A DNA stretch of 64,000 nucleotides from Candidatus Kuenenia stuttgartensis (GCA_945872305.1 CAMCAC010000001.1:2970-66969), one strand, 5' to 3'; counted from the stretch's first letter, positions 8,368 to 33,051 are shown. Translations and numbers: made by a program. Notes: generated from the letters alone by a model not told the origin.

Positions 8368-9086
8368 GCGATCCGCTCCCCGTCGTGGCCCACCGCGCAC
8401 CACGGGGGCAGCACGGTCCCCTCGTCGAGATGGCATTGCAGGTGGTGGCCGATGTGGACCAGCCGCCCGGCGGTGCAGCGGATCGCCGTCAGGGCCGCCA
8501 CCGCCCGGGGCAGGTCGTTGTGGCGTTTCTCCTCGGCCCGGGGGTCGTCGGGCGGGAACGAGCAGTCGATGGCCCCGAGATCCGGGCGCAGGGCGGCGAG
8601 GAACGCGGTGGTCCGCTCCGGCAGGCCGAGGGTGTCGGTGAGCCAGGCGATCCGCCGGGGGCCCTCCACCAGCCAACCGACCGCGGGGATGGTGTGGTGC
8701 AGGGGCACCGGCGTGGCGGTCCAGCCGTTCGCCAGGGCTATGGACACGAAGGGTTCCACCACCCGGATGCGCAGGCCGGGCACCCGGTCCTCGACCGCGA
8801 TCCGGCGGTCCGGATCCTCGGGCCCCCACACCGGCCGGCCGGCGGCGACGGCGGCGATCTCCGCCACATGGTCCGGGTGGTAGTGGGTCAGGAGCAGCGC
8901 GTCGGGCCGGTCGGGGCCCACCAGCCCCGCGTCCACCTGGACACTGAACCGGTGGTCCGCGATCCACGCGCAGGTGTGGCGGCGGGACGGCCCGGTGCCG
9001 GTCCGGGCCCGGTCGCAGGCGCCGCAGATGCAGCCGGCGGCGGGGATGCCGCTGGTGGTGCCGGTGCCGAGCAGGGTCAGACGCAT
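8358..9086 (-). CDS. phnP: PhnP, phosphonate metabolism phosphodiesterase (metallo-beta-lactamase fold)
   Basis: Product MRLTLLGTGTTSGIPAAGCICGACDRAR...LLLTHYHPDHV... has the PhnP N-terminal Cys cluster and the HxHxDH motif. Overlaps the phnM start by 10 nt. Confidence 0.8.
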   Translation of the reverse strand: MRLTLLGTGTTSGIPAAGCICGACDRARTGTGPSRRHTCAWIADHRFSVQVDAGLVGPDRPDALLLTHYHPDHVAEIAAVAAGRPVWGPEDPDRRIAVEDRVPGLRIRVVEPFVSIALANGWTATPVPLHHTIPAVGWLVEGPRRIAWLTDTLGLPERTTAFLAALRPDLGAIDCSFPPDDPRAEEKRHNDLPRAVAALTAIRCTAGRLVHIGHHLQCHLDEGTVLPPWCAVGHDGERIAWS

Positions 9087-10222
9087 GCGGGCCGGTCCAC
9101 GGTGTCGAGGACCTTGCGCCCAGCGACCAGCACCGCCTGGACCGTGGGCCGTTGGGCATCCACGAGCAACAGATCCGCCCGTTGGCCGAGGGCGATCGCG
9201 CCACGGTCGCGCAGCCCCGCCGCCCGGGCCGGCATCAAGCTCACCAGCCGCACCGCATCCGGCAGACTGAGGGGGGACACCTCCGGGAGCATGAGCGCCG
9301 CCGCCAGGAGCGAGGGCGGATGGTAGTCCGCGCACAGCCCGGTGCAGGCGCCGGCGAGGATCACATCCAGGGCCCGGACATTGCCACCGCTGCTCCGGCC
9401 GCGCACCACGTTCGGTGCCCCGAACAGGGTGACCATGCCCGCGTCCACCGCCGCCTGGGCGGCGGCGAGACCGATCGGGAACTCGCTGATCGTCACCCCC
9501 AGCCGCTGCATGGCGGCGACCTTTTCCGGGGTGTCGTCGTCGTGGCTGGCCAGGGCCACGCCGTGCTCCCGGGCCAGGGCGGCGAGGCGGTCCATGCGCG
9601 CGGCGCCCTCGTCCCGGGCGGCGACCTTGGATTCGCCGATGCGGATCGATTCCGCTTCGCTGGTGTGGTAGGTGCGGGTCATGTACGCGACATAGGCGCC
9701 CATGTCCGCGAACTGGCCCTGACCCGGGCTGTGGTCCATGAACGACACGAGTTCGGTCTGGCCGTCGGCGATCAGCTCCGCCACCGGGGCTTCGCCGCCG
9801 GCGTCGGTGATCTCGTAGCGGGCGTGGACCCGGTGCTCGACCAGGCCGGAGAACCCGCGCACCGTGCGCACCACCTCGGCGGCGACCCGGCAGTCCCGCA
9901 CGCCCCATTCGCCGCCGGCGAAGGAGATCGCGTGGTACACGGTGGTGATGCCGGCGTGCAGGTTGCGGCGGTCGGAATTCGCCAGGGCGAAGCCGTGGTC
10001 GAAGGCGACCCGGGGCCGCGGCTCAACCTCTTTTTCAAGGGCGTCGCAATGCAGATCGACCAGCCCGGGCAGGCAGCGGGCGCCGCCACCGTCGAGCTCC
10101 TGGTCGATGTCCGGGGCCACCGGGCAGATGGAGCGGATGATGCCGTCCTCGATCAGCAGGGAGCCATCATGGACAACCGCATCCGGCAGGACGAGGTCCA
10201 CATGGGAGATCAGGCGGCGCAT
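9077..10222 (-). CDS. phnM: PhnM, RPnTP diphosphatase (amidohydrolase superfamily)
   Basis: Product MRRLISHVDLVLPDAVVHDGSLLIEDG...LPGLVDLHCDALEKE...ASHDDDTPEKV...SEFP...GAPNVVRGRSSGGN sits in operon position between phnL and phnP. Confidence 0.85.
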   Translation of the reverse strand: MRRLISHVDLVLPDAVVHDGSLLIEDGIIRSICPVAPDIDQELDGGGARCLPGLVDLHCDALEKEVEPRPRVAFDHGFALANSDRRNLHAGITTVYHAISFAGGEWGVRDCRVAAEVVRTVRGFSGLVEHRVHARYEITDAGGEAPVAELIADGQTELVSFMDHSPGQGQFADMGAYVAYMTRTYHTSEAESIRIGESKVAARDEGAARMDRLAALAREHGVALASHDDDTPEKVAAMQRLGVTISEFPIGLAAAQAAVDAGMVTLFGAPNVVRGRSSGGNVRALDVILAGACTGLCADYHPPSLLAAALMLPEVSPLSLPDAVRLVSLMPARAAGLRDRGAIALGQRADLLLVDAQRPTVQAVLVAGRKVLDTVDRPACV

Positions 10223-19722: not shown

Positions 19723-20553
19723 ATGAACGACCTGTCCGTGCCTGCGCCTGGAACTTCTCCGGATCCCTTGCGGGAACGTCTCGATCCCCCTGGGGCACGC
19801 TGGCGCGGATGGGTCCGATGGCTCGGCCTGTTCGCCTTCGCCGGTGTCATGGCCTGGGCGTGGCAGGGGGCTGAGATGCGGCCCTACGACCTGGTCGCCA
19901 ACAGCGGCAACATCGCCACCATGGGATCGGATTTCTTCCCCCCGGATTTCCACGACTGGCGGAACTACGCCGAGGAGATGGTGGTCACCGTGCACATCGC
20001 GCTGTGGGGGACCTTCCTCGCAGTGGTCGCCTCGGTGCCGCTCGGCCTCCTGTCGTCCGCCAATCTGACCCCGTGGTGGGTGCATCATCCGATCCGCCGC
20101 CTCATGGACTCCGCCCGTGCCATCAACGAACTGATCTTCGCGCTTCTGTTCATCGTCGCGGTCGGTCTTGGACCGTTCGCCGGGGTGCTCGCCCTGTTCG
20201 TCCACACCACCGGCATCCTCGCCAAGTTGTTCAGCGAGGTGGTCGAATCCATCGATCCGCGGCCGGTCGAGGGCGTCCGGGCAGCAGGGTCGTCGAAGCT
20301 CGGCGAGGTCGTGTTCGGCGTGATCCCCCAGGTGTTGCCCATGTGGGTGAGCTACGCCCTGTACCGCTTCGAATCCAATGTCAGATCGGCGACCGTCATC
20401 GGCATCGTCGGCGCCGGGGGCATCGGCATGGTGCTGCATGACCTGATGGCCTCGTTCCATTACGGCATGGCCTGCGCCGTCCTTATCATCATCGTGATCA
20501 CGGTGGTGATCATCGACATCATCTCGGCCCAGATCCGCCGTCTCCTGGTCTGA
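19723..20553 (+). CDS. phnE: PhnE, phosphonate ABC transporter permease
   Basis: Membrane protein with the ABC permease EAA-like loop and PhnE-like C-terminus (…ATVIGIVGAGGIGMVLHDLMASFHY…). Start chosen at ATG 19723 after a GGGGAG RBS; ATG 19672 is an alternative. Confidence 0.8.
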   Translation: MNDLSVPAPGTSPDPLRERLDPPGARWRGWVRWLGLFAFAGVMAWAWQGAEMRPYDLVANSGNIATMGSDFFPPDFHDWRNYAEEMVVTVHIALWGTFLAVVASVPLGLLSSANLTPWWVHHPIRRLMDSARAINELIFALLFIVAVGLGPFAGVLALFVHTTGILAKLFSEVVESIDPRPVEGVRAAGSSKLGEVVFGVIPQVLPMWVSYALYRFESNVRSATVIGIVGAGGIGMVLHDLMASFHYGMACAVLIIIVITVVIIDIISAQIRRLLV

Positions 20554-20559
20554 TCATCC

Positions 20560-20578
20560 GCATTCACGGGATCTTCAT
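20560..20578 (+). promoter_or_regulatory. PHO-box-like site (GCATTCAC ggg ATCTTCAT) between phnE and the Ser/Thr kinase gene
   Basis: Two 8-mers in 11-bp phase, ~58 bp upstream of the kinase ATG. Confidence 0.3.
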
Positions 20579-20636
20579 CGATCCCTGCGATGGTCCTCAT
20601 GCCCCGGGCCAGGGTGCGCCGGTCCAGGCAGAAACC

Positions 20637-22853
20637 GTGTCCAGCACCCGTCACGACCCCCACGCCACCATCGACCTCTCCGAGGGCACCCGTACCACGG
20701 GCGGCCATTCCGGGGACTCCTCGGCCATCCGCATCGGACCCGCCGAGGTTCGCACCACCCGGCTGCCCTACGACCTGGTCGAGGAGCTCGGGCGCGGCGG
20801 GATGGGCACCGTCATGAAGGCGCTGGACACCGCCCTGTGCCGCGAGGTGGCGGTGAAGCTGCTCACCCGCATGGGCGACGAGCGCCGCCATGCCCGCTTC
20901 CTGGCCGAGGCCCAGATCACCGGCCAGCTTGAACACCCCGGAATCGTCCCGGTCCACGGGTTCGGCACCGCCGCCGACGGGCGGCCCTGGTTCGCCATGA
21001 AGCTGGTCCGGGGCCGCACCCTGGGCGAGATCATCGCCGCCCGCCCGGTGGACCCCGGTACCCACCGTGCGTGGTCCCTGCGCCGGCTGCTGACGATCCT
21101 GGTCCAGGCGTCCCAGGCGGTGGCCTTCGCCCACAGCCGGGGGGTCGTGCACCGCGACATCAAGCCGGCCAACATCATGCTTGGAGACTTCGGCGAAGTG
21201 CTGGTCATGGACTGGGGTCTGGCGCGCATGCAGGGCGCCGGTCCCGAGGGCGCCGCCGCCGCCGGGCTGGATGCCGCCCCCGAGGTCAGCGTCGACGGCA
21301 CCGTCTGCGGGACGCCGTGCTACATGCCCCCGGAGCAGGCCCGGGGCGAGCGCGACCGGGTCGGGCCCGCGAGCGATGTCTTCGCCCTCGGGGCGACCCT
21401 GTGCGAGATCCTGTCCGGTCGGCCGCCCCTGACCGGGGCGACCGCGTCGTCGGTGGTGCGCCGGGCGGCCCGGGGCGAGGCCGTGGGACCAACCGTGGAC
21501 TGGCAGGATCGGCCGGTGCCGGCGGCCCTGGTCTCGATCTGCCGCCGGGCCCTGGCCGCGGAGCCCGGGGACCGATACCCGGGGGCCCTGGCGTTCGCGG
21601 CGGATCTTCAGGCATTCCTCGACGACCGTGGGGTCGAGGCGCATGACGGTGGCTGGTGGGACGACATCGCGAGGGCGATCCGCCGGCATCGCTCGGCGGC
21701 GGCGGTGGCGGGTGTCGCCGGCCTGCTCCTGGCCATCAGTCTGGCGTTCGGCTATCTGGCGGAGCGTCGAGCCCGGTCGGCGGCGGAATCCGAGCGGGTA
21801 CGGGCCGAGGCGGCGCTGGCCGACGCGGAGCGCCGGCGGGCGGATGCGGAGCAGGGCCGGCGCCGGGAGCGCATGCTGGTCCAGGGCGCCCGCTCCCAGG
21901 CCTGGCAGGTGGAGCGTGGCCGGGCCGCCGCCGCGATGGCCCAGGCCGCCGCCGGGCTGGAGGCGGACCGCTCGGACCGTGCCCGGGCCGCCCTCGACGC
22001 CGTTCCCGGCGAGGCCCGGGACTGGACCTGGCGGCATCTCGACGCCCGGCTCGCCGGGGTCATGCCTCGCCGGATCGCCGCCGGTGCCGGCAGCCTGGTC
22101 CCCGCCACCGAGGGGGTGCTCCTGGTCGAGGACGATGGCGGGGTCCGGCTGGTGGGGCTGCGCGGGGATACCCGGGCGGCAGCCCTGCCCCGGGCGGTGC
22201 GGGCGGTGGCCGGCGAGGGTTCCGGTCGGCAGTTCGCGGTCCTGCTCGATGGGGGCGGGCTGGCCCTCGGTGAGACCGCAGCGGGGCGCATCGCCGGCTT
22301 ACGGCCATCATCGGCGGAGCGGATCGCCCTTGGGGCCGACGGGGTGGCGGCGGTGGCCGGGCCGCTCCTGCGGTGGAGGGAGACCGACCACTCCCTGCCG
22401 GGCCGGGCCACCGCGGTGGCCGCCGGCACCGGCTGGGCGGCGGCGGCGGTCGGGGCCCAGGTGGTGGTGGCACGGCCGGAGCGGCCCCTGGCGTTGCTGG
22501 CCCTCGCCGCCACCGCGTCACGGCTCGCCGCCAGCCCGGATGGCGGGATGCTCGCGGCGGCCCATGGCCGTCGCCTGCGCATCTGGGACCTGCCGGAGGG
22601 GACCATCCATGCGGACCTGGAGGTCGAGCAGCCGGTGACGGCGGTGGCCTTCTCCCGGGACCTGGGCGTGGTTGCGGTGGGCCAGGAGGACGGCGAGGTG
22701 GTGCTCCTCGATATCGATCTCGGACTGCCCGTGCTGCGCCTGCCGGTGGGCGGTGGGGCGGTGGTCGGCATCGCCTGGAGCGCCGACGGGCGGGTGCTCG
22801 CAGCCCGGCCGGTGGTCGGGCCCCTGGTGGTGTGGACCGACCAGGGACCGTGA
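20637..22853 (+). CDS. Hanks-type Ser/Thr protein kinase with a TM helix and a C-terminal WD40-like beta-propeller
   Basis: Glycine loop LGRGGMGTVMKA, catalytic lysine AVKLL, HRDIKPANIML, and a DWG in place of DFG. The predicted TM segment is AVAGVAGLLLAISLAFGYL. C-terminal repeats are of the form LR(I/V)WD…, AVAFS…D. Confidence 0.8.
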   Translation: MSSTRHDPHATIDLSEGTRTTGGHSGDSSAIRIGPAEVRTTRLPYDLVEELGRGGMGTVMKALDTALCREVAVKLLTRMGDERRHARFLAEAQITGQLEHPGIVPVHGFGTAADGRPWFAMKLVRGRTLGEIIAARPVDPGTHRAWSLRRLLTILVQASQAVAFAHSRGVVHRDIKPANIMLGDFGEVLVMDWGLARMQGAGPEGAAAAGLDAAPEVSVDGTVCGTPCYMPPEQARGERDRVGPASDVFALGATLCEILSGRPPLTGATASSVVRRAARGEAVGPTVDWQDRPVPAALVSICRRALAAEPGDRYPGALAFAADLQAFLDDRGVEAHDGGWWDDIARAIRRHRSAAAVAGVAGLLLAISLAFGYLAERRARSAAESERVRAEAALADAERRRADAEQGRRRERMLVQGARSQAWQVERGRAAAAMAQAAAGLEADRSDRARAALDAVPGEARDWTWRHLDARLAGVMPRRIAAGAGSLVPATEGVLLVEDDGGVRLVGLRGDTRAAALPRAVRAVAGEGSGRQFAVLLDGGGLALGETAAGRIAGLRPSSAERIALGADGVAAVAGPLLRWRETDHSLPGRATAVAAGTGWAAAAVGAQVVVARPERPLALLALAATASRLAASPDGGMLAAAHGRRLRIWDLPEGTIHADLEVEQPVTAVAFSRDLGVVAVGQEDGEVVLLDIDLGLPVLRLPVGGGAVVGIAWSADGRVLAARPVVGPLVVWTDQGP

Positions 22854-22859
22854 GCTTGC

Positions 22860-24635
22860 TCAGCGCGCGTCCGCGGCGACGAAGCGGAAACCAAGGTAGG
22901 GCAGGTGGGCCCGGCCCATCAGGCCGAAGCGCCGGGCTGCCCGGGCGTCGGCGCGCTCGGTGCTCCAGGCGCCGCCCCGGGCGACCCGCTGTGCGCCGCT
23001 CGAGATGCGCCGGTCGACCACCGGCCGGGACGGATACGGGGCGAAGGCATCCACCGTCCACTCCATCACATTCCCGTGCAGGTCATGCAGGCCCCAGGCA
23101 TTGGCCGGCAGGATCGCCACCGGTCGGGTGCGCTCGGCGTTCGCCGCATCCCACATCCGCTCGACCGCGAAAGGACCCTCGGTCCCGGCCCGGCAGGCGA
23201 TCTCCCATTCCACTTCGGTGGGGAGCCGTGCACCCAGGCCCGGCACCAGGGCCTCAAGGCGCTGGCAGAAGGCCATCGCATCGTCCCAGGTCACATTCTC
23301 GACCGGCAGGTCGTCACCGGGGAACTGGCTCGGGTTGCTGCCGGTGACGGTGCGGTAGAGGGCCTGGTCGACTTCGCGGTCGAGCATCCACACCGGGGCG
23401 GACAGGGCGGCCTCAAACGGCGTTTCGTTGGCTTGCCGTCCTGGCTCGTCGGCCGGGGATCCGATGCGCATCGGAGCGGCGGCGATGCGGCGAAGGCGCA
23501 CGGTGCGATCCACCATCCGCAGATCCGCCCAGGGTCCGTGGGCGTCCTCACCGGCGGCGGTTGCCCAGGCTGGACCCGCCGGTCGGGCCGAAGGCACGGA
23601 GGCCGCGGCCGCAGGGGGTGGCGCCGGAGTGGATGGAGGCGGCGTCACCGGGTCGGCGCCACCGGAACCCAGGGCGAAGACGGTTGCGACGGTCCCGACG
23701 ACCACCAGGCCGCCGGCGATCAGGGGCCAGCGCGGTCCGCGTCGGACCACCGGCACGACGGTCGAGGCCGCTCCCACCACGGACTGGCGGCGCTGGTGCT
23801 CGATGGTCGTCATGCCCGGGGCCCTGGCTCCGCCGCCGGCGGGCCGGGCGTGCAGGGGGGAGAACCCGTGGGCCAGCCGCTCAAGATCCTCGCGCAGCTG
23901 CGCCGCGCCCGGGTAGCGGTCGTCCGCGTGCCGCGCCAGGGCCCGCCGCAGCACCGCCGCCATGCCGGGCGCGAGACCGGCGACCAGGGATTCCGGGAGC
24001 GGTGACCGGGCCCAGGCGTCGAGGTCCGCCCGCGACCGGACCGTCACCGGCCAGGCCCCGGTCACCAGGCGCAGGAGGATCACCCCGACCCCGTGAAGAT
24101 CACTGCGGGTATCGCCGGTCTCGCCGAGGATCTGCTCCGGGGCGCGCGTGGTGGCGGCCGAGGGATCGCCGCCGTCGGCGAACACGCCCAGGTCCGCGAG
24201 CACCGCCTGCTGCCCATCGCACCACACGGCCGTCGGTCCGATTCCTCGGTGGGCGATGCCGGCCGCATGCAGCACCTCCAGGGCCCGGCACAGGTCCAGG
24301 CACCAGCCGAGCCCGTCCGCCGTCGCCGGCGCCGATGCCGACAGCAGCCGGTCCAGGCGTTCCCCGTCCGGGCGGCCCTGCACCGTCCAGCAGGCATCTT
24401 CGTGTACGCCGGAGCCGAGGAGCGGCACGAGGTTGGGAGATGGGGAAAGGGCCGCCGCCGCCGTCAAGGCGGAGGACATGGCATCCACGGCCGGAATGCG
24501 TGGCCGCAGGGTGACGAGCACCGGGCGGCCGCCCAGGCGGGCGCCGTAGCGGATCGCCTCGCCGTCGCGGCCCAGCTCGCTCCAGTCGGCAAGGCCGGGA
24601 AGATCGATGGCGGCGAGGACGGGACCGGGACGCAT
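22860..24635 (-). CDS. Degenerate (pseudo)kinase domain, a TM helix, and a C-terminal FGE-sulfatase/SUMF1-like domain
   Basis: N-terminal kinase-like fold lacking canonical motifs (HRGIGPTAV instead of HRDxKPxN; ADLG instead of DFG). TM segment PLIAGGLVVVGTVATVFAL. C-terminal NAWGLHDLHGNVMEWTVD…RGGAWS matches the formylglycine-generating-enzyme family. Confidence 0.7.
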   Translation of the reverse strand: MRPGPVLAAIDLPGLADWSELGRDGEAIRYGARLGGRPVLVTLRPRIPAVDAMSSALTAAAALSPSPNLVPLLGSGVHEDACWTVQGRPDGERLDRLLSASAPATADGLGWCLDLCRALEVLHAAGIAHRGIGPTAVWCDGQQAVLADLGVFADGGDPSAATTRAPEQILGETGDTRSDLHGVGVILLRLVTGAWPVTVRSRADLDAWARSPLPESLVAGLAPGMAAVLRRALARHADDRYPGAAQLREDLERLAHGFSPLHARPAGGGARAPGMTTIEHQRRQSVVGAASTVVPVVRRGPRWPLIAGGLVVVGTVATVFALGSGGADPVTPPPSTPAPPPAAAASVPSARPAGPAWATAAGEDAHGPWADLRMVDRTVRLRRIAAAPMRIGSPADEPGRQANETPFEAALSAPVWMLDREVDQALYRTVTGSNPSQFPGDDLPVENVTWDDAMAFCQRLEALVPGLGARLPTEVEWEIACRAGTEGPFAVERMWDAANAERTRPVAILPANAWGLHDLHGNVMEWTVDAFAPYPSRPVVDRRISSGAQRVARGGAWSTERADARAARRFGLMGRAHLPYLGFRFVAADAR

Positions 24636-24679
24636 GGATGCGAGCCTCCCGCTGCCGGTGAGGATCGCGGCAAGGAAAG

Positions 24680-24698
24680 ATGAAGGTGTCGTGAACCG
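24680..24698 (-). promoter_or_regulatory. PHO-box-like site oriented toward the pseudokinase-FGE gene (minus strand: CGGTTCAC gac ACCTTCAT)
   Basis: 11-bp phased 8-mers, 45 bp from the minus-strand start. Confidence 0.35.
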
Positions 24699-24707
24699 GA
24701 GGCAGGG

Positions 24708-24737
24708 GATTTCACCACATCTTCACCGAGCCTTCAT
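24708..24737 (+). promoter_or_regulatory. PHO box upstream of the pstS-like gene: three 8-mers GATTTCAC cac ATCTTCAC cga GCCTTCAT
   Basis: Three consecutive TTCAY 8-mers at exact 11-bp spacing, 33 bp upstream of the pstS ATG. This is the best copy of the motif in the window. Confidence 0.5.
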
Positions 24738-24770
24738 GGACGCGACGACAAGGCCAGACCGGAGCCACCC

Positions 24771-26036
24771 ATGCCACGCCTCGCGCCCCTGCTCATCCTC
24801 ATCGCCACCGGCCTGTCGGCCGCGGACCGTGCCTCGATCAGCATCGACGGATCGAGCACCGTGTACCCGATCAGCCTGGCCGTGGGCGAGGCCTATGCCG
24901 CCCGCACCGGCACCGCCCTCGACATCCAGGTCACCGGATCGAGCGCCGGGCTGCGCGCCTTCATCGGCGGCAAGCTGGCCATCGCCGCCGCATCCCGGCC
25001 GATCCGCCCGGACGAGGTGGATGCCCTGCGTCGGGCCGGCATCGGGTTCCTGGAGGTGCCCATCGCCCTCGATGGCCTGACCGTGGCAGTGGGCCGTCGC
25101 AACACCTTTGTCGACCACTTGACCGTGGCCGAACTGCGCGCCCTGTGGGAGCCGGGCAGCACCGTGGCCACCTGGAACCAGGTGCGCGGCGCATTCCCGG
25201 CGGCACCGGTGGCCCTGGTCGGTCCCGGGCGCAACTCCGGCACCTTCGACTTCTTCACCGAGGTGGTCAACGGCAAGGCCCGGGCTGTGCGCGAGGTGTG
25301 GACCGGCAGCGAGGACGACAACGAGATCGTGGCGGTGCTCACCGGGGATGCCAACGCCCTCGGCTACTTCGGCTGGTCCTACTACCAGCAGAACCAGGCC
25401 CAGCTCCGCGCCATCCCGATCGACGCCGGGCACGGCCCGGTGGCCCCGTCGCGGGCTGCTATCGAGGATGGCAGTTATGTCCCCTTCTCCCGTCCCCTGT
25501 TCTATTACATCGCCGCCACCGCCATGGAGCGGCCCGAGGTGCGCGGCTTCGTCGATCTGGCCCTGGACTCCCGGCAACTCGTCGAGGAGGCGGGGTATGT
25601 CCCGCTGAGCGAGCCGGTCCTCGCGGTGGTCCGGCGCCGGGTGACCGAGCGCACCACCGGCAGCCTCTTCGCGACCATCGAAGGACACCCGCGCATCGCC
25701 GAGGTGTACCTGGGTTCCACCGCGGCCGCGGTTCCCGCCCCAGCCCCGACTCCGGTCGCAGTGGCAGTCCCGGTTACGGCTCCGACCGCTGCCCCGGCCC
25801 CGGCCCCGGTGGTGGCCCCTGTGGTCGCCCCGGTCGCGGTGGCCCCGGCCCCGGTCGCGGTGGTCCCGGCCCCGGTCCCGGTGGCGACCGCCCCTGCGAT
25901 CCCGGCGGCGGAACTGGAGCGGCTGCGTCGCCAAGCCTTCGCCCTCGCCCGGGCAACGCTTGCGGAGCAGCCGGACCCCGCGGAACTGCGCCAGCGCATC
26001 CGCGACCTCGCCGCCGTGGCGGGAGCGGCGCCGTGA
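24771..26036 (+). CDS. pstS: PstS-family periplasmic phosphate-binding protein with a ~110-aa Ala/Pro/Val-rich C-terminal extension
   Basis: Signal peptide MPRLAPLLILIATGLSAA, then PstS hallmark SISIDGSSTVYPISLAVGEAYA...VTGSSAGL...GWSYY. The tail is AVPAPAPTPVAVAVPVTAPTAAPAPAPVVAPVVAPVAVAPAPVAVVPAPVPVATAPAIP followed by a charged helix. Confidence 0.8.
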   Translation: MPRLAPLLILIATGLSAADRASISIDGSSTVYPISLAVGEAYAARTGTALDIQVTGSSAGLRAFIGGKLAIAAASRPIRPDEVDALRRAGIGFLEVPIALDGLTVAVGRRNTFVDHLTVAELRALWEPGSTVATWNQVRGAFPAAPVALVGPGRNSGTFDFFTEVVNGKARAVREVWTGSEDDNEIVAVLTGDANALGYFGWSYYQQNQAQLRAIPIDAGHGPVAPSRAAIEDGSYVPFSRPLFYYIAATAMERPEVRGFVDLALDSRQLVEEAGYVPLSEPVLAVVRRRVTERTTGSLFATIEGHPRIAEVYLGSTAAAVPAPAPTPVAVAVPVTAPTAAPAPAPVVAPVVAPVAVAPAPVAVVPAPVPVATAPAIPAAELERLRRQAFALARATLAEQPDPAELRQRIRDLAAVAGAAP

Positions 26037-26773
26037 ACCGGCAGCGGTCCGTTCTCGTCCTCGCCGCCGTCCTGGCCGCCGGGTGCCAGTCCGCCCGGCC
26101 GCACCCGCCGGCGCCGGTGCCGACGGTGGTCTCCGCCCCGGCCCTGCCGGCGGCCTGGAGCGGAATCTGGCGTTCCGACTCCGGCGCCGGCCTGGCGGTG
26201 GGCGGGGATCTCCTGCTCTGGACCGACGATGTCGGCGCCGTGGCCGAGTGGCGGCCGCGGGCGGTCCGCGCCATCGGTCCGGCCCTCGTCCTGGATCTCG
26301 CCGAGGGCACCACGGCCTTGACCCCGGGCCGGTCGGTGCGCGAGCGCCGCTTCGCCGCCCAGGCGGTGTGGACGGACGCCGACCATCTGGATCTGCATCG
26401 CCCCGGGCGTCCGTCGGTGCGGCTGTGGCGCGAGGGAGGCTCCACCTGGCTTCCGGTCCAAGCACCGGTGACGGTGGCCGGGCCGGTGGCGGCGGACCCG
26501 GATGCACGCCTGCGGGAGCGGGCCAGGGATCTCGCCGACCCGGGCTGGACCGCTGCGGCGGAGTCCCTGGTCGGCGCCGCCCGGGCCGGCGCCCGGAACG
26601 AGGAACTCGCGGCGCGGATCGATGCCATCACCCGCCGGGAGCGCCTTGCCGCCCTCGACCGGCTCGAAGCATCGATCATGGATACCTCCCTGCGACCAGG
26701 AGCCGACCGGCTTGCCGCCGATGCGGAATCCTGGCTCGTCCACGCCACCGCATGGCTGGAGTCACGGCCCTGA
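26033..26773 (+). CDS. Lipoprotein of unknown function (GTG start overlapping the pstS stop)
   Basis: (M)NRQRSVLVLAAVLAAGC lipobox, in the same operon as pstS. No recognisable domain. Confidence 0.45.
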   Translation: MNRQRSVLVLAAVLAAGCQSARPHPPAPVPTVVSAPALPAAWSGIWRSDSGAGLAVGGDLLLWTDDVGAVAEWRPRAVRAIGPALVLDLAEGTTALTPGRSVRERRFAAQAVWTDADHLDLHRPGRPSVRLWREGGSTWLPVQAPVTVAGPVAADPDARLRERARDLADPGWTAAAESLVGAARAGARNEELAARIDAITRRERLAALDRLEASIMDTSLRPGADRLAADAESWLVHATAWLESRP

Positions 26774-26774
26774 C

Positions 26775-27641
26775 ATGGCCCAGCCCAGCGATGGAGACAC
26801 CAGCCGGATCCGTCGGCTGACCCGGACCCAGACCGCGGGTACCGGCGCCCCGCTCCAGGGCGAGTTGGAGGAATATCCCTTGGCGGATGTGCTCCAGTTC
26901 CTGGCCCGGAGCCGCCGGAGCGGTCATCTGGCCCTGGAGCGCGGGGAGCCTGCCCAGACCGCCGCGGTGATCGTCCATGAGGGGGTCGTGGTGTCGGCGC
27001 GGTGTCCGCCCGCCTCCGGTGACCAGGTGGTGATCTCCCTGCTGGGCTGGCGTCATGGCCGGTTTCTCTTCCTGGCCGGTCAGGTGCCTTCGGTCGGTGA
27101 CGTGACCCAGGGACTGCCCGCCTTGCTCCTGGAGGCGGCCCGCTGGGAGGACGAGATCGGCCGAGCCCTCGCCGGGCTGCCCGGACCGGACACGGTGCTG
27201 CACCGGGTCCACGATTCCCGGCTCGTGACCACCCGGGTCAGCCGCCTGGCCTGGAACCTGCTCGGTCACGTGGATGGCGAGCACACGGTGATGGAACTGG
27301 TGCAGGGTTTCCGGACCGCCCAACCGGAGGTCGCCATCGCCCTGCGCGATCTGTGGCAGTCGGGGTTGGTGCGGGACCACGCCGACACGGGATTCCTCCG
27401 TCGCATCGCGGTGCGCCGGATGGTGCCGGCATCCGGCATCGATTCCGCCGAGGATCGTGTCCTGGCTGCGGCGGATGGCCACCGCAGCCTTGCCGATGTG
27501 CTCCTCCTGACCGGCCTGCCGGGCGAGGAGATGATCGCCACCGCGGTCCATCTCATCGAGGCATCGCGTCTGGAGATCGTGGCCGGCCACGACGCCTATC
27601 GCGACCATCTGGATCCGGGGCTTCCGGAACGGCGGTGGTGA
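26775..27641 (+). CDS. DUF4388-domain protein (PATAN-like N-terminal module)
   Basis: The N-terminus …LQGELEEYPLADVLQFLARSRRSGHLALERG… matches the DUF4388 signature (G.L..f.l.dllQ.l…k.tG.L). The ATG is 1 nt after the lipoprotein stop. Confidence 0.5.
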   Translation: MAQPSDGDTSRIRRLTRTQTAGTGAPLQGELEEYPLADVLQFLARSRRSGHLALERGEPAQTAAVIVHEGVVVSARCPPASGDQVVISLLGWRHGRFLFLAGQVPSVGDVTQGLPALLLEAARWEDEIGRALAGLPGPDTVLHRVHDSRLVTTRVSRLAWNLLGHVDGEHTVMELVQGFRTAQPEVAIALRDLWQSGLVRDHADTGFLRRIAVRRMVPASGIDSAEDRVLAAADGHRSLADVLLLTGLPGEEMIATAVHLIEASRLEIVAGHDAYRDHLDPGLPERRW

Positions 27642-27661
27642 AGGCGTCCTCGGTGCCCGCC

Positions 27662-27691
27662 GTCTTCATGATGACTTCACACGGCGTTCAC
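27662..27691 (+). promoter_or_regulatory. PHO box: GTCTTCAT gat GACTTCAC acg GCGTTCAC, immediately upstream of the phytase-like lipoprotein gene
   Basis: Three 8-mers in perfect 11-bp phase. It ends only 11-23 bp before the candidate start codons, implying a leaderless mRNA or a downstream start. Confidence 0.45.
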
Positions 27692-27701
27692 AGGCCGGGG
27701 C

Positions 27702-29417
27702 ATGAACCGTCCCATGCCCCATATCCCCACCACCCGCACCCTGCTCTCCACCACCCTGCTTGCCGCGGCCCTGCTCGCCGGCGGCTGCGCATCCGACGGC
27801 GATGATGGCGCCGCGGGTCCCACCGGACCCACTGGCCCAGGTGGTCAGGACGGCGACGGCTCCATCCACCTCCGTTCCGTCGGCACCTATGCCGGCGGCG
27901 GTTCATCCAACGAAATCGTCGCCTACGATCCCATCAGCAAGCGGATGTTCGTGGTCAACGCCACGGACGGGTTGCTGGAGATCGTCAGCCTGGCCAGCGC
28001 CACCGCCCCGGTGAAGGTCGGCCAGGTCGACATCACCGCCGCGCCGATCAACGGCGGCGGCATCAATTCCGTGGCGGTCCACGGCGGGCTGGTGGCGATC
28101 GCCATCGAGGCCCCGGACAAGACCGCCTCGGGCACGGTCGCCTTCCTCTCCGCCAGCGGCACCGGTGCGATCCTCGCCCAGGCGGTGGTCGGCGCCCTGC
28201 CGGACATGCTGACCTTCACCCCGGATGGCACCAAGGTCCTGGTCGCCAACGAGGGTGAGCCCGAGGATTATGCGGTCATCGATCCCGAGGGTTCCGTGTC
28301 GATCATCGCCATGCCCGCCACGGTCACCGCCGGCACCAGCTTCGCCAGCCGGGTGACCCAGGTCGGCTTCGCCGGGTTCAACGCCAGCGCCGCCGCCCTG
28401 CGCACCGCCGGGGTGCGCATCTACGGTGGCCTGGATGCCAATGATGACGGTGACACCACCGATCCGGGCGACACCCCGAGCACCGTGGCCCAGGACCTGG
28501 AGCCCGAGTACATCGCCGTCAGCGCCGATTCAGGGACCGCGTTCGTGACCCTGCAGGAGAACAACGCCATCGCCGAGATCGACATCGCCACCGGGACGGT
28601 GGTCGCGATCCGGCCGCTCGGGTACAAGAGCCATGACCTGATCGGCAACGAGATCGATCCCAGCGACCGGGATGTGAACGGCACCTCCGGCGGCGGCGGC
28701 GTGGCCCGGCTGCGCACGGTGCCGGTGTGGGGCATGTATCAGCCGGATGCCATCGCCGCATTCACGGTCGCCGGCAGCACCTACCTGGTGACCGGCAACG
28801 AGGGTGACGCCCGGGCGGACTGGGCCGGCTTCTCCGAGGAGTCCCGTCTCGGCGGCGCCACCTTGGATGCGGCCAATCCCGTCTCGCTGCGGGGCCTGAC
28901 CGGCAATGCCGATCTCGGCCGTCTGAACATCACCACCGCCAGCGGCGACACCGACGGCGACGGCGACCTCGACCGCTGCTACGCCTATGGTGCGCGCTCG
29001 TTCTCGATCTGGTCTGAGAGCGGATCCCTGGTCTTCGATTCGGGCAACGACTTTGAGCGCATCACGGCCAACCGCCTGGGCACCGGCTACAACAATGACG
29101 GCGGCGGCTTCGATTCCCGCAGCGACAACAAGGGCCCCGAGCCCGAGGGTGTCACCACCGGCACCATCGAGGGCCGCACCTACGCCTTCATCGGCCTGGA
29201 GCGCACCGGCGGCGTGATGGTGTACGATGTCACCGTCCCCGATGCGGCGGAGTTCGTGCAGTATGTCCGCACCTCGGGCGACGTGTCGCCCGAGGGCCTC
29301 GCCTTCATCCCGGCGGCCAGCAGCCCGAACGGCAAGGCCCTGCTCCTGGTCGCGCACGAGATCAGCGGCACCACCGTGATCTACGAGATCGATCCGACCC
29401 CGACCGGCAGCAACTGA
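27702..29417 (+). CDS. Secreted lipoprotein, beta-propeller of the 'choice-of-anchor I' / phytase-like esterase family (probable phosphoesterase)
   Basis: Lipobox LLAGGC, then a collagen-like GPTGPTGPGG linker. Repeated blades contain NEGEPEDYA…, GPEPEGVTTGT…GLERTGGVMVYDV, and SPEGLAFIP, as seen in phytase-like / choice-of-anchor-I proteins. Family call from memory; moderate confidence. Confidence 0.55.
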   Translation: MNRPMPHIPTTRTLLSTTLLAAALLAGGCASDGDDGAAGPTGPTGPGGQDGDGSIHLRSVGTYAGGGSSNEIVAYDPISKRMFVVNATDGLLEIVSLASATAPVKVGQVDITAAPINGGGINSVAVHGGLVAIAIEAPDKTASGTVAFLSASGTGAILAQAVVGALPDMLTFTPDGTKVLVANEGEPEDYAVIDPEGSVSIIAMPATVTAGTSFASRVTQVGFAGFNASAAALRTAGVRIYGGLDANDDGDTTDPGDTPSTVAQDLEPEYIAVSADSGTAFVTLQENNAIAEIDIATGTVVAIRPLGYKSHDLIGNEIDPSDRDVNGTSGGGGVARLRTVPVWGMYQPDAIAAFTVAGSTYLVTGNEGDARADWAGFSEESRLGGATLDAANPVSLRGLTGNADLGRLNITTASGDTDGDGDLDRCYAYGARSFSIWSESGSLVFDSGNDFERITANRLGTGYNNDGGGFDSRSDNKGPEPEGVTTGTIEGRTYAFIGLERTGGVMVYDVTVPDAAEFVQYVRTSGDVSPEGLAFIPAASSPNGKALLLVAHEISGTTVIYEIDPTPTGSN

Positions 29418-29461: not shown

Positions 29462-30676
29462 TCAGGCCGTGAGCAGCCCAGGTGGCGGGATCTCCGCCGC
29501 CTGGGCTGCGTCGTTGTCGCGGCCGGCCCTGGTCCGTGGACCGGCCGCCAGCGGGAGCACCACGCGGAAACAGGAGCCTTGCCCGGGGACGCTGTCCACC
29601 TCCATCCGCCCGCCCATGGCATCGACCAGGCGGCGGGAGATCGCCAAGCCCAGGCCACTGCCCTCATGGCGGCGTGAGGATGTTGCATCGACCTGGACGA
29701 ACGGTGTGAACAGCCGGGCGAGGTCTTGCGCGGCGATGCCGCAGCCGGTGTCCGTGACCTCCAGAGTGAGCAATCGGTCGGGCATCAGTGCGGCATGCAA
29801 CCGGATCCCGCCCTGGTCGGTGAACTTGCAGGCGTTGCCCAGGATGTTCACCAGCACCTGGGTCAGCCGGCGGGGATCGCCCATGATCACGGGGGGCAGA
29901 TCCGGTTCGATCGTCAGGTCGAGGGCAAGCCGCTTGTCCCGGGCCAGCGGCGAGATCATTCCTACCGCATCGGTGAGCAGGGGGCGCAGGTCGATGGGGT
30001 GCCGCTCCATCCGCATGGATCCCGATTCGAGGGTCGAGATGTCGAGCACCGCATTGACCAGGGACAGCAGGTGCGAACCGGCCCGGTGGATCTGGGCGGC
30101 GCTGTCGTGAACCTCGTGCAGATCATCGGTGCCGGCGAGCAGTTCCGAGAAGCCGAGGATGGCGGTGAGCGGCGTACGCAGCTCATGGTGCATGGTGGCG
30201 ATGAACTGGCTGCGTGCACGCACGCCGGCCAGGGCGAGGTCCCGGGCAGCGATGAGATCCCGTTCCCGGCGGGCGGCCTGGGCGAGGAATGCTTCGACCA
30301 GCAGGGGGTAGGTCAGGACGAGCGGTTCGCCGGGATCGTCGTTCACCAGCCCCCCTGCCTGCGCCGCATCACGGTCCCGCCACATCGGCAGCACCTCCGC
30401 GAGGGGCGTTGCTGCCGGGATCCGTACCGCCGGGGCGAGCCGCATCGCATCGATCCACTGGCCCAGGGGCCGGTCCTGGAGCAGGGCGAAGCCGTAGCGT
30501 CCGGCGAAGGCCGACAGCAACTGGTGGCGGAAGAGCAGGTGGGTGCAGTGTCCGTTGCGGGCGACGGGGACCGCCTCGGGTCCGCCACCGCCCAGGAACC
30601 GTTCACGGAGGACGCCGCAGGGGAGGCGGTCATCCACCGCTCGGCATCGACGGGCGGCGTCACCGGCGCTGTCCAT
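29462..30676 (-). CDS. Sensor histidine kinase (HisKA + HATPase_c) with an N-terminal sensory region; no cognate response regulator adjacent
   Basis: H-box ATMHHELRTPLTAILGFSELL, N-box LVNILGNACKFT, G-boxes DTGCGIA / GSGLGLAI. Start set at internal ATG 30676, because the GTG at 30757 lies inside the btaA PHO box. Confidence 0.7.
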   Translation of the reverse strand: MDSAGDAARRCRAVDDRLPCGVLRERFLGGGGPEAVPVARNGHCTHLLFRHQLLSAFAGRYGFALLQDRPLGQWIDAMRLAPAVRIPAATPLAEVLPMWRDRDAAQAGGLVNDDPGEPLVLTYPLLVEAFLAQAARRERDLIAARDLALAGVRARSQFIATMHHELRTPLTAILGFSELLAGTDDLHEVHDSAAQIHRAGSHLLSLVNAVLDISTLESGSMRMERHPIDLRPLLTDAVGMISPLARDKRLALDLTIEPDLPPVIMGDPRRLTQVLVNILGNACKFTDQGGIRLHAALMPDRLLTLEVTDTGCGIAAQDLARLFTPFVQVDATSSRRHEGSGLGLAISRRLVDAMGGRMEVDSVPGQGSCFRVVLPLAAGPRTRAGRDNDAAQAAEIPPPGLLTA

Positions 30677-30749
30677 GCCGAGGAGGATGCACGGGACTGT
30701 GAAGACATGATGAATTTGGCAGGGGCCCTGGACAACCCGGGCCAATCGG

Positions 30750-30779
30750 GCGTTCACGCCGTCTTCCCGATGTCTTCAC
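30750..30779 (+). promoter_or_regulatory. PHO box upstream of btaA: GCGTTCAC gcc GTCTTCCC gat GTCTTCAC
   Basis: Three 8-mers at 11-bp spacing, 25 bp upstream of the first ATG of btaA. Confidence 0.45.
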
Positions 30780-30803: not shown

Positions 30804-32045
30804 ATGATCACATCCGCAGCCGAGGCCATCGCCATCAGCCCCATGCCGGCCCGGCCGCGTTCCGGCCCACCGGTGCGCGAACGTCTGCATCAGCGGTTGT
30901 TCACCGCCCTGCACAGCCGCAGCCTGCTCTACAATGCCTGTTGGGAGGATCCCGCCCTGGATCGGGTGGCCCTCGATCTGCAGCCCGGGCAGTCGGTGGC
31001 GGTGATCACCAGCGCCGGCTGCAACGCCCTCGATTACGCCCTGTGCGGGGCCACGGTCCATGCGGTGGACATGAACCCGCGGCAGAACGCCCTGCTCGAC
31101 CTCAAGCTGGCGGCGATCCGCCGGCTGCCCCACGACGACGGATTCCGCCTGTTCGGCGAGGGCTGGCACCCGGCGTTCCGGGACGTCTATCACGACGCCC
31201 TGCGCCCGGACCTCTCACCCTGGGCCCAGGGCTGGTGGGATCGCCACATCGGCATGTTCAGCGGCCGGGGCCTGCGCCAGTCGTTCTACGATCACGGCCT
31301 GAGCGGGCTGGTGGCCCGGGGCATGCGCGCCTGGATCGGAGCCGATCGCGGGCGGCGGCGGGCCATCGAGGCCCTGCTCGATGCCCCCGACCTGCATGAG
31401 CAGCGGGCGGTGTGGGAGACCCGGGTCGAGCCGGCGCTGTGGTCCGGATTCCTGCCCTGGCTGGTCCGCCGCCAGGCGACCATGAGCCTGCTCGGGGTGC
31501 CCACCGCCCAGACCGCCGAGGTCGAGCGCGCCCACCCCGATGGCGTGGCCGGCTTCATCCTGAGCAGCCTGCGGCGGGTGTTCACCACCCTGCCCATCGC
31601 CAGCAACTACTTCTGGACCGTGTACCTGCGCGGCCGCTACACCCGCGCGAACTGCCCGGAATATCTGCGCCGGGAGGGATGGAACACGCTCAAGCGGACC
31701 CTGGGCAACCGGGTGCGCACCCACACCGGGACCATGACCGGGTTCCTTGCCGGTCATCCGGAGGCGATCGACCGCTTCGTGCTCCTGGATCACCAGGACT
31801 GGCTCGGGGCGCATCATCCCGAGGCCCTGGATGAGGAGTGGACCCACATCCTGCGTCGGGCCGCGCCGGGGGCGCGGATGATCTGGCGCAGCGCCCATCC
31901 CCAGCCGTCCTGGCAGTCGGCGATCCGGGTCGATGGCCGGCCCCTGGCCGAGCACCTGCACTTCCACACCGACTTGGCGGAGACCCTTCATCCCAAGGAC
32001 CGGGTCGGGACCTACGGCGGCTTCCACATCGCCGCGGTGCGCTGA
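30804..32045 (+). CDS. btaA: BtaA-like S-adenosylmethionine:diacylglycerol 3-amino-3-carboxypropyltransferase (DUF3419 family), betaine-lipid DGTS synthesis
   Basis: …RLHQRLFTALHSRSLLYNACWEDPALDRVALDLQPGQSVAVITSAGCNALDYAL… is the conserved BtaA/DUF3419 N-terminal block. It is followed by a methyltransferase gene, as in btaAB operons. Start may be 30804 or the ATG at 30843. Confidence 0.7.
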   Translation: MITSAAEAIAISPMPARPRSGPPVRERLHQRLFTALHSRSLLYNACWEDPALDRVALDLQPGQSVAVITSAGCNALDYALCGATVHAVDMNPRQNALLDLKLAAIRRLPHDDGFRLFGEGWHPAFRDVYHDALRPDLSPWAQGWWDRHIGMFSGRGLRQSFYDHGLSGLVARGMRAWIGADRGRRRAIEALLDAPDLHEQRAVWETRVEPALWSGFLPWLVRRQATMSLLGVPTAQTAEVERAHPDGVAGFILSSLRRVFTTLPIASNYFWTVYLRGRYTRANCPEYLRREGWNTLKRTLGNRVRTHTGTMTGFLAGHPEAIDRFVLLDHQDWLGAHHPEALDEEWTHILRRAAPGARMIWRSAHPQPSWQSAIRVDGRPLAEHLHFHTDLAETLHPKDRVGTYGGFHIAAVR

Positions 32046-32046
32046 C

Positions 32047-32775
32047 ATGGATGCGGCCACCGCCTGGCGCATGGTCCGCGGCATGCCGCGGCAGGGCACC
32101 CACCAGGAGAAACTGTCCGGATTCTACGCGGCCCAGGCGGACCGCTACGACACGGTGCGGGAAGGGCTTCTGCATGGCCGGGACGGGATGGTCGCTGCAC
32201 TCGCCGCCCGTCTCGCGGACGGGGCGGCGGTGGCGGAGATCGGCTGCGGTACCGGCCGCAACCTCGAATGCCTGGGGCCGCACCTGGACCGGCTTGGCCC
32301 GGTGTGGGCGGTGGACCTCTGCCCGCCCCTGCTCGCCAAATGCCGGGAGCGCATCGCCGCGCGCGGCTGGGAGCGGGTCGAGGCGGTGGAGGCGGACGCC
32401 ACGGTGTGGGTGCCGCCACGCCCCCTCGATGCGGTGTTCTTCAGCTATTCGCTGACCATGATCCCGCCCTGGCGGGCGGCCCTGGATCGGGCGCTGGCGA
32501 ACCTGCGCCCCGGCGGCGTCATCGGCGTGGTGGATTTCTGGGTGTCCGGCAGCGACGGCGGGGATCCGGAACGGCATGGCGCCTGGACCCGCTGGTTCTG
32601 GCCGCGCTGGTTCCGCCATGATGGCGTGCACCTCGGCCCGGACCGTCTGCGCGCCCTGCGCGCCGCCGGCGCCGTCGAGGACCTGCGGACCGACCGCGGC
32701 CGCATCCCGGGCATCGGGTTGTCGGTGCCATGGTTCAGCCTGGTCGCCCGGGTGGGATCGCCCAGCGCTGGATGA
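32047..32775 (+). CDS. btaB: BtaB-like SAM-dependent methyltransferase (DGTS pathway)
   Basis: Class I MTase motif VAEIGCGTGRNL plus later conserved blocks. The ATG is 1 nt after the btaA stop. Confidence 0.65.
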   Translation: MDAATAWRMVRGMPRQGTHQEKLSGFYAAQADRYDTVREGLLHGRDGMVAALAARLADGAAVAEIGCGTGRNLECLGPHLDRLGPVWAVDLCPPLLAKCRERIAARGWERVEAVEADATVWVPPRPLDAVFFSYSLTMIPPWRAALDRALANLRPGGVIGVVDFWVSGSDGGDPERHGAWTRWFWPRWFRHDGVHLGPDRLRALRAAGAVEDLRTDRGRIPGIGLSVPWFSLVARVGSPSAG

Positions 32776-33051
32776 TCCGTGACGATGGGTGGAGTCCCAT
32801 CAATCCGTGCCCAGTGACGACGCGTGAGCGAGTGCGGTGGCGGACCGGTGGCATGTCCTGGTACCGTCCGAGTCCTGGTTGGCGGGAAGTGGAATCCGGC
32901 GCCGCAGGCCGGTCCCGCCGCGACGGCAGGACCGGCAGTCCTGTCATTGCCGTGATGTCCGACGGCGGCCCGTCGCCCGTGTGGTGAGGCGGGTCCCGCC
33001 CCGGGGTGGGATACCCCTGGATGGCTCCGGGTCCGGGTGCATGCTCGGTCC

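Follow-up and report, generated by a model that had tools for sequence, protein, structure and literature searches.

In the textbook scheme, bacterial phosphate sensing is carried out by the two-component system PhoR/PhoB and is read through PstSCAB and PhoU. In Mycobacterium tuberculosis, the pstS2-pknD pair (Rv0932c-Rv0931c) lies in a phosphate-uptake locus and links the gene of a PstS phosphate-binding protein to that of a bitopic Hanks kinase whose extracytoplasmic sensor is a beta-propeller (PMC3322341, PMC7034087). Active serine/threonine kinases (STKs) joined through one transmembrane (TM) helix to an FGE-sulfatase domain are a common architecture, exemplified by the Proteo1 family of the bacterial STK atlas; in the available portion of this atlas, FGE-sulfatase is reported for an active family and the seven pseudokinase families are not linked to FGE (10.1101/2025.01.12.632604). 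The present analysis was performed on 64 000 nucleotides of DNA from Candidatus Kuenenia stuttgartensis (GCA_945872305.1 CAMCAC010000001.1:2970-66969), hereafter the window, in which a Hanks-type STK gene, a gene for a pseudokinase-TM-FGE-like protein (the TM-FGE gene) and a gene for a PstS-family protein are neighbours. We propose, with moderate confidence, that these genes form part of a transmembrane signalling module, conserved and under Pho control, in a narrow, uncultured freshwater clade of Planctomycetota, and that in this module the PstS-like protein and the FGE-like ectodomain sense and the active kinase signals. That the three genes are one Pho-controlled, functionally linked module is probable; the specific sensing scheme is put forward more tentatively.

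As in pstS2-pknD, the gene of a bitopic Hanks kinase, here with a putative propeller, is linked to a PstS gene, and the mycobacterial locus is the nearest precedent for that pairing. The propeller of PknD is six-bladed and has the NHL-repeat fold, whereas the STK of the window gives WD40-like and not NHL matches. The pknD gene is predicted to be co-transcribed with pstS2, whereas the STK gene forms a transcription unit by itself, has a PHO-like box of its own and faces a convergent partner gene. Moreover, pstS2-pknD belongs to another phylum and has no pseudokinase, FGE-like, lipoprotein or PATAN partner. The module is built from known kinds of parts in a new combination. A literature search returned no earlier account of an FGE domain joined to a pseudokinase, nor of Hanks kinases under PHO-box control in Planctomycetes.

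Both open reading frames (ORFs) of the original prediction, an annotation made from the DNA alone, exist. The first (20637-22853, plus strand) lies just after phnE, as annotated, and was identified from profile matches and motifs as a bitopic Hanks-type STK of 738 aa with a WD40-like C-terminal region. Its kinase domain (aa 45-336, 20769-21644) was delimited from Pfam and NCBIfam matches and from the Hanks motifs. It scored 124 bits against Pfam Pkinase PF00069 (cutoff 31.7) and holds the full Hanks set, i.e. GRGGMG, VAVK, AEAQ (alphaC Glu), HRDIKPAN, DWG and GTPCYMPPE. All these motifs are invariant in six orthologs (42-92% identity). By motif content the protein is apparently an active kinase, as had been claimed. 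The single TM helix (aa 352-376, 21690-21764; Kyte-Doolittle peak 2.18) is followed by a predicted extracytoplasmic part (21765-22850) in which a charged helical stretch, the conserved motif RDWxWRHL and a putative, degenerate beta-propeller of WD40 type are distinguished. Only sub-threshold WD40/beta-propeller matches were obtained with Pfam in the C-terminal 360 residues (at aa 626-733): WD40 reached 25 bits against a cutoff of 27 and Beta-prop_EML_2 reached 37.8 bits against a cutoff of 90. Orthologs of the STK match several Beta-prop/WD40 families. Planctomycetota WD40-kinase paralogs of 1100-1200 aa, which align over 93% of the STK query, match many of them.

The second ORF (22860-24635, minus strand) encodes a protein of 591 aa, which was analysed with Pfam, a PknB alignment, an AlphaFold2 (AF2) model and Foldseek. 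From N- to C-terminus it contains a pseudokinase domain (aa 10-265, 23841-24608), a highly conserved juxtamembrane segment (aa 247-283, 23787-23895), a TM helix (aa 303-327, 23655-23729) with RRGPR on its N side, which fits an N-in topology, and an extracytoplasmic domain of FGE-sulfatase fold (aa 350-591, 22863-23588), all on the minus strand. The annotated topology was recovered for both proteins, in which a single TM helix connects the kinase or pseudokinase domain in the cytoplasm to an ectodomain. The mean predicted local distance difference test (pLDDT) score of the AF2 model was 84.8, with about 90 for the kinase fold and about 95 for the FGE fold; the juxtamembrane/TM stretch is unstructured between the confident kinase (aa 10-265) and FGE (aa 350-590) folds. 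Foldseek gave TM-scores of 0.74-0.79 to the PknB/PknA kinase domains and of 0.73 to TvpA.

The pseudokinase domain barely exceeds the Pkinase PF00069 cutoff (33.3 against 31.7 bits) and aligns with PknB at E = 5e-16. The beta3 Lys column holds V41. The PknB catalytic loop HRDVKPAN aligns to H129-R-G-I-G-P-T-A136, where the HRD Asp is replaced by an invariant G131, the catalytic-loop Lys by G133 and the Asn by A136. The original prediction had given HRGIGP and ADLG as lost catalytic motifs. The former was confirmed, together with loss of the beta3 Lys, but the latter still holds the DFG Asp (D148-L-G), and APE is also kept. Fourteen family members were read: the window protein, the full-length relatives P0002-P0011 (42-84% identity), P0096, P0100 and the protein of contig L018. 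None retained a complete catalytic triad, the beta3 Lys, HRD Asp and catalytic-loop Lys/Asn being gone in all 14. In P0005, P0006, P0010, P0096, P0100 and L018 the DFG Asp is gone as well (GLG in several). The active STK-TM-FGE kinases (Proteo1; P0014, P0019, P0043) share the order of kinase, one TM helix and extracytoplasmic FGE fold but keep the VAIK Lys, HRDLKPxN and DFG, whereas this clade has lost the Lys, Asp, Lys and Asn in every member. HRDLKPxN is kept in the more distant STK-FGE proteins P0014, P0019, P0034 and P0043. The active STK-TM-FGE kinases are the evident ancestors of the pseudokinase-FGE protein. Catalysis with a displaced Lys (WNK type) was considered and rejected: the beta2 Arg R29 is common and not invariant, and the position of the base is Gly in all members.

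The original prediction had called the ectodomain FGE/SUMF1-like and suggested, as one example, that the two proteins sense a state of sulfatase maturation. The assignment holds for the fold, which scored 115.6 bits against FGE-sulfatase PF03781, and not for the enzyme. C336 and C341 of human FGE align to T and A, and no Cys was found in the last 109 residues of the protein. As the defining Cys pair is absent, the 591-aa protein is not a plausible formylglycine enzyme. The best PDB match by both sequence and structure is TvpA of Treponema denticola (2y3c); sequence relatives also include the enzymes PvdO, EgtB and ToxD. TvpA is a non-enzymatic surface protein that has the same fold as the ectodomain, but it is a stand-alone spirochaete protein without kinase, TM or Pho context. 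With the Cys pair absent, TvpA the closest structure and no sulfatase family match among the roughly 55 window ORFs scanned, sensing of sulfatase maturation has no basis. The juxtamembrane segment reads LREDLERLxHGFSPLHARP...RAPGxxT(V/I)(D/E)HxRR. Its first half was rejected as a family-specific motif, being the general G-x-P-x-x-A-R-P of related active kinases (e.g. P0043); only APGxxT(V/I)(D/E)H is specific to the family.

The family is rare. A profile of the N-terminal 300 residues, run against 1.84 billion cluster representatives, recovered six family clusters and thereafter generic kinases. Two of the clusters, P0096 and P0100, were new and both are degenerate. Among 185,579 species-representative genomes, carriers were three Planctomycetota metagenome-assembled genomes (MAGs; Erken-D3, RH-18aug17 and ME2016), and all family members are from Planctomycetota. 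The scan of genome contigs gave three true loci, most loci being obtained by exact-protein look-ups; a scan of metagenome contigs with the pseudokinase profile gave no match. The ratio of non-synonymous to synonymous substitution rates (dN/dS) was computed for the window gene against an ortholog 84% identical to it. It was 0.25 in the pseudokinase domain, 0.075 in the juxtamembrane segment (aa 245-300), the lowest value in the gene, 0.50 in the TM/linker and 0.12 in the FGE domain. These values indicate that the dead kinase domain is maintained by selection. As judged from the sequences, the pseudokinase is a conserved family under purifying selection and not a recent pseudogene. Conservation is found in the C-lobe (APE, alphaF Asp, alphaH-I Arg), in DLDAWAR of the alphaG region and in the juxtamembrane motif; there is little conservation in the N-lobe.

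The two genes are not co-directional but convergent; only 6 bp separate their stop codons, which leaves no room for a terminator. Contigs carrying orthologs (labelled L) were compared by tblastn and called genes in eleven lineages with about 40-50% identity. The TM-FGE gene adjoins the STK ortholog in 10/11 lineages, so that the pair, as the original prediction would have it, is conserved as neighbours. The pair is convergent in eight lineages (the window/P0002 group, L002, L004, L010, L011, L014, L018 and L015); in L014 only the C-terminal end of the STK is visible, at the contig edge. In L008 (34-3982) and L017 (7154-11097) the pseudokinase gene precedes the STK gene in tandem. Both genes are on one strand with gaps of only about 30 bp (L008) and 5 bp (L017), and their co-transcription is therefore probable in these two lineages. 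An apparently 'kinase-less' STK in L011 was discarded as a real loss, the cause being a scaffold N-gap. In L015, the slot of the pseudokinase gene, between the STK and pstS-like genes, is occupied by a gene (8593-9522, minus strand) whose 309-aa product consists of a short tail rich in Arg, a single TM helix and the FGE-like domain. The pseudokinase domain is wholly lost, with only 144 bp left to the next gene. Because the pseudokinase domain is dispensable in L015, the annotated kinase/pseudokinase pair stands as a conserved pair, with the weight shifted to a kinase plus a TM-FGE co-receptor.

The most constant partner of the TM-FGE gene had been passed over, namely the divergent PstS-family gene with the lipoprotein gene behind it and, in most lineages, a PATAN gene. 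Divergence from the PstS-family gene, which had been annotated for the window, was found in 10/10 lineages with upstream DNA; the two genes are never separated, and the lipoprotein gene then follows. The PATAN gene comes next after the lipoprotein gene in six lineages with complete downstream DNA. The outer flanks vary by lineage and include phnCDE, btaA/B-like genes with PhoX/phytase-like genes, DUF2157/GDYXXLXY, GH3/PAP2/Metallophos, a sigma-54 activator or a fatty-acid desaturase. Since these flanks differ between lineages, the adjacency is not plain inherited synteny.

The PstS-family phosphate-binding protein (24771-26036, plus strand) carries a signal peptide and, at its C-terminus, a linker rich in Pro and Ala plus a helix. 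It scored 225.9 bits against TIGR02136 (cutoff 206.6) and 219 bits against PDB 4jwo, annotated as a phosphate-binding protein, and the SGTFDFFTE / SGT motif that binds inorganic phosphate (Pi) is kept. The Pro/Ala-rich tail, at aa about 325-385 and followed by the short helix, is unusual for PstS. No pstC, pstA or pstB was found beside the PstS-like gene in the window or in any lineage examined. The clade-specific lipoprotein (246 aa, 26033-26773, plus strand) has a conserved lipobox LAAGC. Its GTG start at 26033 overlaps the stop of the pstS-like gene by 4 nt (26033-26036), which suggests translational coupling between the two genes. Only five homologs were found in 5.8 billion proteins, and no Pfam or NCBIfam family matched the lipoprotein. 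Its AF2 model is poor (mean pLDDT 63.7) and confident only in a C-terminal helical bundle. The third gene (26775-27641, plus strand) encodes a cytoplasmic PATAN (DUF4388) protein (59.8 bits against DUF4388) with a weak, sub-threshold winged-helix signal at its C-terminus (HTH_47, 16.7 bits). In Synechocystis, PATAN domains serve as adaptors for the type IV pilus motor, to which they bind (10.1101/2021.06.11.447907).

The genes are preceded by PHO-like boxes, defined as the direct repeat cTTCAY-N5-cTTCAY with an 11-bp period. The pattern TTCAYN6TTCAY has 11 matches in the window against 0.06 expected. The TCAY core and the 11-bp spacing are common to this repeat and the Escherichia coli PHO box. 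As annotated, each of the two genes has its own box. The box TTCACgggatcTTCAT (20563-20578, plus strand) lies just past the phnE stop, 59 bp before the STK start, and a second box (24680-24695, minus strand) points toward the pseudokinase gene, 44 bp before its ATG. Three tandem half-sites, TTCACC-N5-TTCACC-N5-TTCAT (24711-24737, plus strand), are directed toward the pstS-like gene. The other 16-mers of the window (3260, 6322, 15653, 17558, 27665/27676 and 30699) precede the OlsH-like, amidohydrolase, phnF/C-P lyase operon, GNAT (beside phnCDE), choice-of-anchor I and HisKA genes. All window boxes read as promoter-proximal, and the genes they precede are a classical Pho regulon. For three genes (OlsH-like, phnF-like and histidine kinase) the box falls within the longest ORF, which implies true starts later than those of the longest ORFs. 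With its box at 30699, in the intergenic region shared with the BtaA-like gene, the HisKA kinase probably starts downstream of GTG 30757. A scan of 20300-27800 for sigma-70 promoters and terminators gave no promoter and one chance-level terminator.

In the other loci, about 0.02 exact matches were expected per locus. Exact or one-mismatch boxes were found in the pstS-like/TM-FGE intergenic region of L002, L004, L010, L011, L014, L015, L017 and L018, and boxes with zero or one mismatch 22-120 bp before the STK start in L002, L004, L010, L015, L016, L018 and L019. In L016 and L019, where the STK stands outside the module, no exact match other than its box occurs in 20 and 14 kb, respectively. 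Of the tandem loci, L017 has its boxes ahead of the pseudokinase gene, and the L008 contig lacks upstream DNA. The Pho regulator thus appears to control the STK and TM-FGE genes through the boxes, and the STK and the module are predicted members of the Pho regulon throughout the clade. The original prediction had the kinases feeding into the phosphate response; the flow that can be read from the sequence runs the other way, from the Pho regulator to the genes. In four loci the box ends 22-25 nt before the annotated STK start (L004 14209, L016 8964, L018 3167, L019 4416). As a PhoB-type box at that distance would put the start of transcription at or next to the start codon, the STK mRNA is possibly leaderless there if the promoter is of PhoB type.

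A number of genes near the STK were recorded in other lineages. Genes for HAMP-MCPsignal chemoreceptors or histidine kinases lie directly upstream of the STK ortholog and co-directional with it in several of them (L010 5839-7461, L011 11382-12281, L018 1854-3011, L019 1982-4378). A small ORF of 77-86 aa upstream of the STK has its own exact PHO-like box in L002 (10360-10593, minus strand) and L010 (7462-7722, minus strand); the L002 product is Cys-rich (CKNC...CPQC, zinc-ribbon-like) and has no Pfam match. In L016, where the STK has been relocated, a gene with an FHA domain is found close to it. In L004 a receiver-SpoIIE gene (5152-6545; PP2C-type phosphatase) with an exact PHO-like box at 5152 adjoins the PATAN end of the module, and its product is a possible candidate for a cognate phosphatase in that lineage only.

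The following mechanism is proposed. Under Pi starvation, the Pho response regulator would bind the cTTCAY-N5-cTTCAY boxes and turn on two units, one being the bitopic active Hanks kinase and the other the divergent TM-FGE gene together with the pstS-like/lipoprotein/PATAN operon. In the periplasm, the PstS-like protein would report phosphate occupancy to the FGE-fold ectodomain and/or to the beta-propeller of the kinase, the ectodomain acting as a non-enzymatic binding module. For the active kinase, the TM-FGE protein would be a co-receptor or scaffold without catalysis of its own, in which the dead kinase domain and the strongly conserved juxtamembrane segment offer a docking or substrate surface. 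The active kinase would phosphorylate cytoplasmic targets, for which the nearest candidate is the PATAN/winged-helix protein. The architectures, the missing catalytic residues, the conserved gene neighbourhood, the positions of the boxes and purifying selection are read directly from the data. Binding of PhoB, sensing of Pi through the PstS-like protein, contacts between the proteins and the output are steps that we infer. The FGE ectodomain is the core of the partnership, since it is the most constrained large domain and the sole domain that survives with the TM helix in L015. The pseudokinase/juxtamembrane part looks like an added docking or substrate surface.

Ligand-loaded PstS binds the receptor CtpL, and LuxP-LuxQ and TorT-TorS are likewise binding-protein-dependent receptors. 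In these systems a periplasmic binding protein presents the state of its ligand to a membrane receptor, as is suggested here by gene order. CtpL, LuxQ and TorS are chemoreceptors or histidine kinases, whereas the candidate receptors here are a Hanks kinase and a pseudokinase. We know of no binding-protein-dependent receptor with a Hanks kinase or pseudokinase. The precedent for detecting phosphate through a membrane receptor is low-phosphate chemotaxis of Pseudomonas aeruginosa, which operates via CtpH and CtpL by different mechanisms and is reported in a study that covers PstS and CtpL jointly (PMC4926252).

Several points weigh against a dedicated signalling module. One lineage carries the STK (L016, L019) and the TM-FGE gene (L013) on different contigs. 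Because one lineage has separated the STK and one has lost the pseudokinase domain, an obligate interaction between the kinase and pseudokinase domains is unlikely. All members are from one narrow clade, so some of the synteny may reflect descent and not selection, and co-regulated Pho genes cluster anyway. The beta-propeller assignment of the STK C-terminus is drawn from sub-threshold Pfam scores. The box was assigned to PhoB from its repeat form and target genes, and no phoB gene was seen in the window. Physical contact between the proteins and phosphorylation are predicted. The genes could accordingly be Pho genes that are co-regulated yet functionally independent, clustered by shared PhoB control and ancestral order with no signalling complex. 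The origin of all loci in one small Planctomycetota clade, the mosaic of Pho genes in the surrounding DNA (phn, btaA/B-like, OlsH-like, PhoX/phytase-like, PAP2, Metallophos) and an STK that has its own box and can sit elsewhere (L016, L019) are in line with this. We nevertheless consider it unlikely: the TM-FGE/STK adjacency outlasts the reshuffling of the flanks in almost every lineage and also the inversion to a tandem, probably co-transcribed order with a 5-bp gap (L017), the TM-FGE and PstS-like genes are unseparated in 10/10 lineages, and the lipoprotein and pseudokinase families occur only in the module.

The role of the TM-FGE protein is also subject to alternatives. That the FGE domain is more constrained than the pseudokinase (dN/dS 0.12 against 0.25), that L015 drops the whole pseudokinase domain and keeps TM and FGE, and that PvdO, EgtB and ToxD are among the relatives would be expected if the FGE-fold domain were a periplasmic enzyme of SUMF1/EgtB/PvdO type, active in phosphorus scavenging or envelope remodelling, with the dead kinase as a vestigial anchor from an STK-FGE ancestor. 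This is judged quite improbable, as the FGE Cys pair is absent, TvpA is the best match in structure and sequence, and the persistent adjacency to an active kinase is left unexplained. Moreover, a vestigial domain would not show a dN/dS of 0.25, more than 50 invariant columns and a tighter juxtamembrane motif across lineages at 40% identity. In M. tuberculosis, PknB phosphorylates the pseudokinase of MviN (MurJ), and FhaA is then recruited. MviN is likewise a membrane protein with a degenerate Hanks domain, working with an active receptor kinase as its substrate or scaffold (a partnership proposed here). In MviN the fusion partners of the pseudokinase are a lipid II flippase and a carbohydrate-binding domain, the role is in the cell wall and the genes do not neighbour pstS, whereas here the fusion is to an FGE fold in a phosphate context. 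MviN is cited as ActPs3 in the available portion of the STK atlas, its pseudokinase domain being the structurally characterised bacterial case given there (10.1101/2025.01.12.632604). By analogy with MviN, the STK might phosphorylate the juxtamembrane Thr (APGxxT), which would recruit a reader, with no allosteric activation of the STK. The poor N-lobe, set beside the conserved C-lobe, alphaG DLDAWAR and juxtamembrane segment with invariant T277, agrees with such a substrate role, as does the FHA-domain gene of L016. However, the module contains no conserved gene for an FHA or other reader, the choice of phosphosite is guesswork and L015 manages without the entire cytoplasmic domain, so that this exact form of the idea is decidedly unlikely. 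As to the choice between roles in general, the poor conservation of the N-lobe, the conserved alphaG and the juxtamembrane Thr lead us to lean toward a substrate or scaffold rather than an allosteric role, on the analogy of MviN-PknB. A bacterial counterpart of receptor-kinase/co-receptor systems such as HER2-HER3 or plant RLKs with pseudokinase co-receptors, in which the FGE ectodomain would read the phosphate-loaded PstS-like protein and the pseudokinase would gate the kinase, is unlikely. On this reading, Ser/Thr phospho-signalling for extracellular phosphate would have its first Pho-induced branch here, and the series from active STK-FGE through pseudokinase-FGE to TM-FGE only would be evolutionary intermediates caught in related genomes.

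The module points to an undescribed second layer of phosphate signalling. In some Planctomycetota, it suggests, phosphate sensing is extended by a Hanks-kinase branch that is induced by Pho and has a periplasmic phosphate-binding protein of its own. The module would also give a first physiological context to the very common, functionally orphan kinase-linked FGE-like ectodomains, and a natural series from receptor kinase to pseudokinase to domain loss. In addition, a PHO-box consensus and a Pho regulon are predicted for a freshwater lineage that is uncultured and lives under phosphorus limitation; this regulon spans the use of phosphonates, genes for betaine and ornithine lipids, and proteins resembling phosphatases. 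The host range, narrow and uncultured, limits the significance, as does the fact that the protein interactions are so far predicted ones.

The module is set inside a dense phosphorus-acquisition gene region. The G+C content of the window is about 72% and its nearest protein matches are sequences bearing Planctomycetota MAG names. Upstream of the phn genes lie a GH3 protein gene (3194-4816), with the lyso-ornithine-lipid synthetase OlsH as best NCBIfam match, and an amidohydrolase ORF (about 6338-7501). The phnJ, phnI and GntR/UTRA phnF-like genes are on the minus strand, followed by an MFS gene and a GNAT gene; phnC, phnD and phnE are on the plus strand, with the phnE stop at 20553. Beyond the PATAN gene are a choice-of-anchor I gene (27702-29417), the HisKA histidine kinase gene (29462-30757) and genes for a DUF3419 (BtaA-like) protein and an S-adenosylmethionine methyltransferase (BtaB-like) (30804-32775). 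The BtaA/BtaB-like and OlsH-like genes are genes of betaine and ornithine phosphorus-free lipids and adjoin the phosphonate/phosphate-scavenging genes; a btaA/B-like pair also flanks the module in L002 and L010. Two successive large proteins (about 780 and 630 aa) with weak DUF4139 matches at most are encoded at 32956-36929 (plus strand). A second, stand-alone FGE-sulfatase-domain protein (48 bits) is encoded at 60088-61008 (minus strand) and adjoins a Calx-beta protein of more than 1000 aa (60948-63998, minus strand) that leaves the window at its end.

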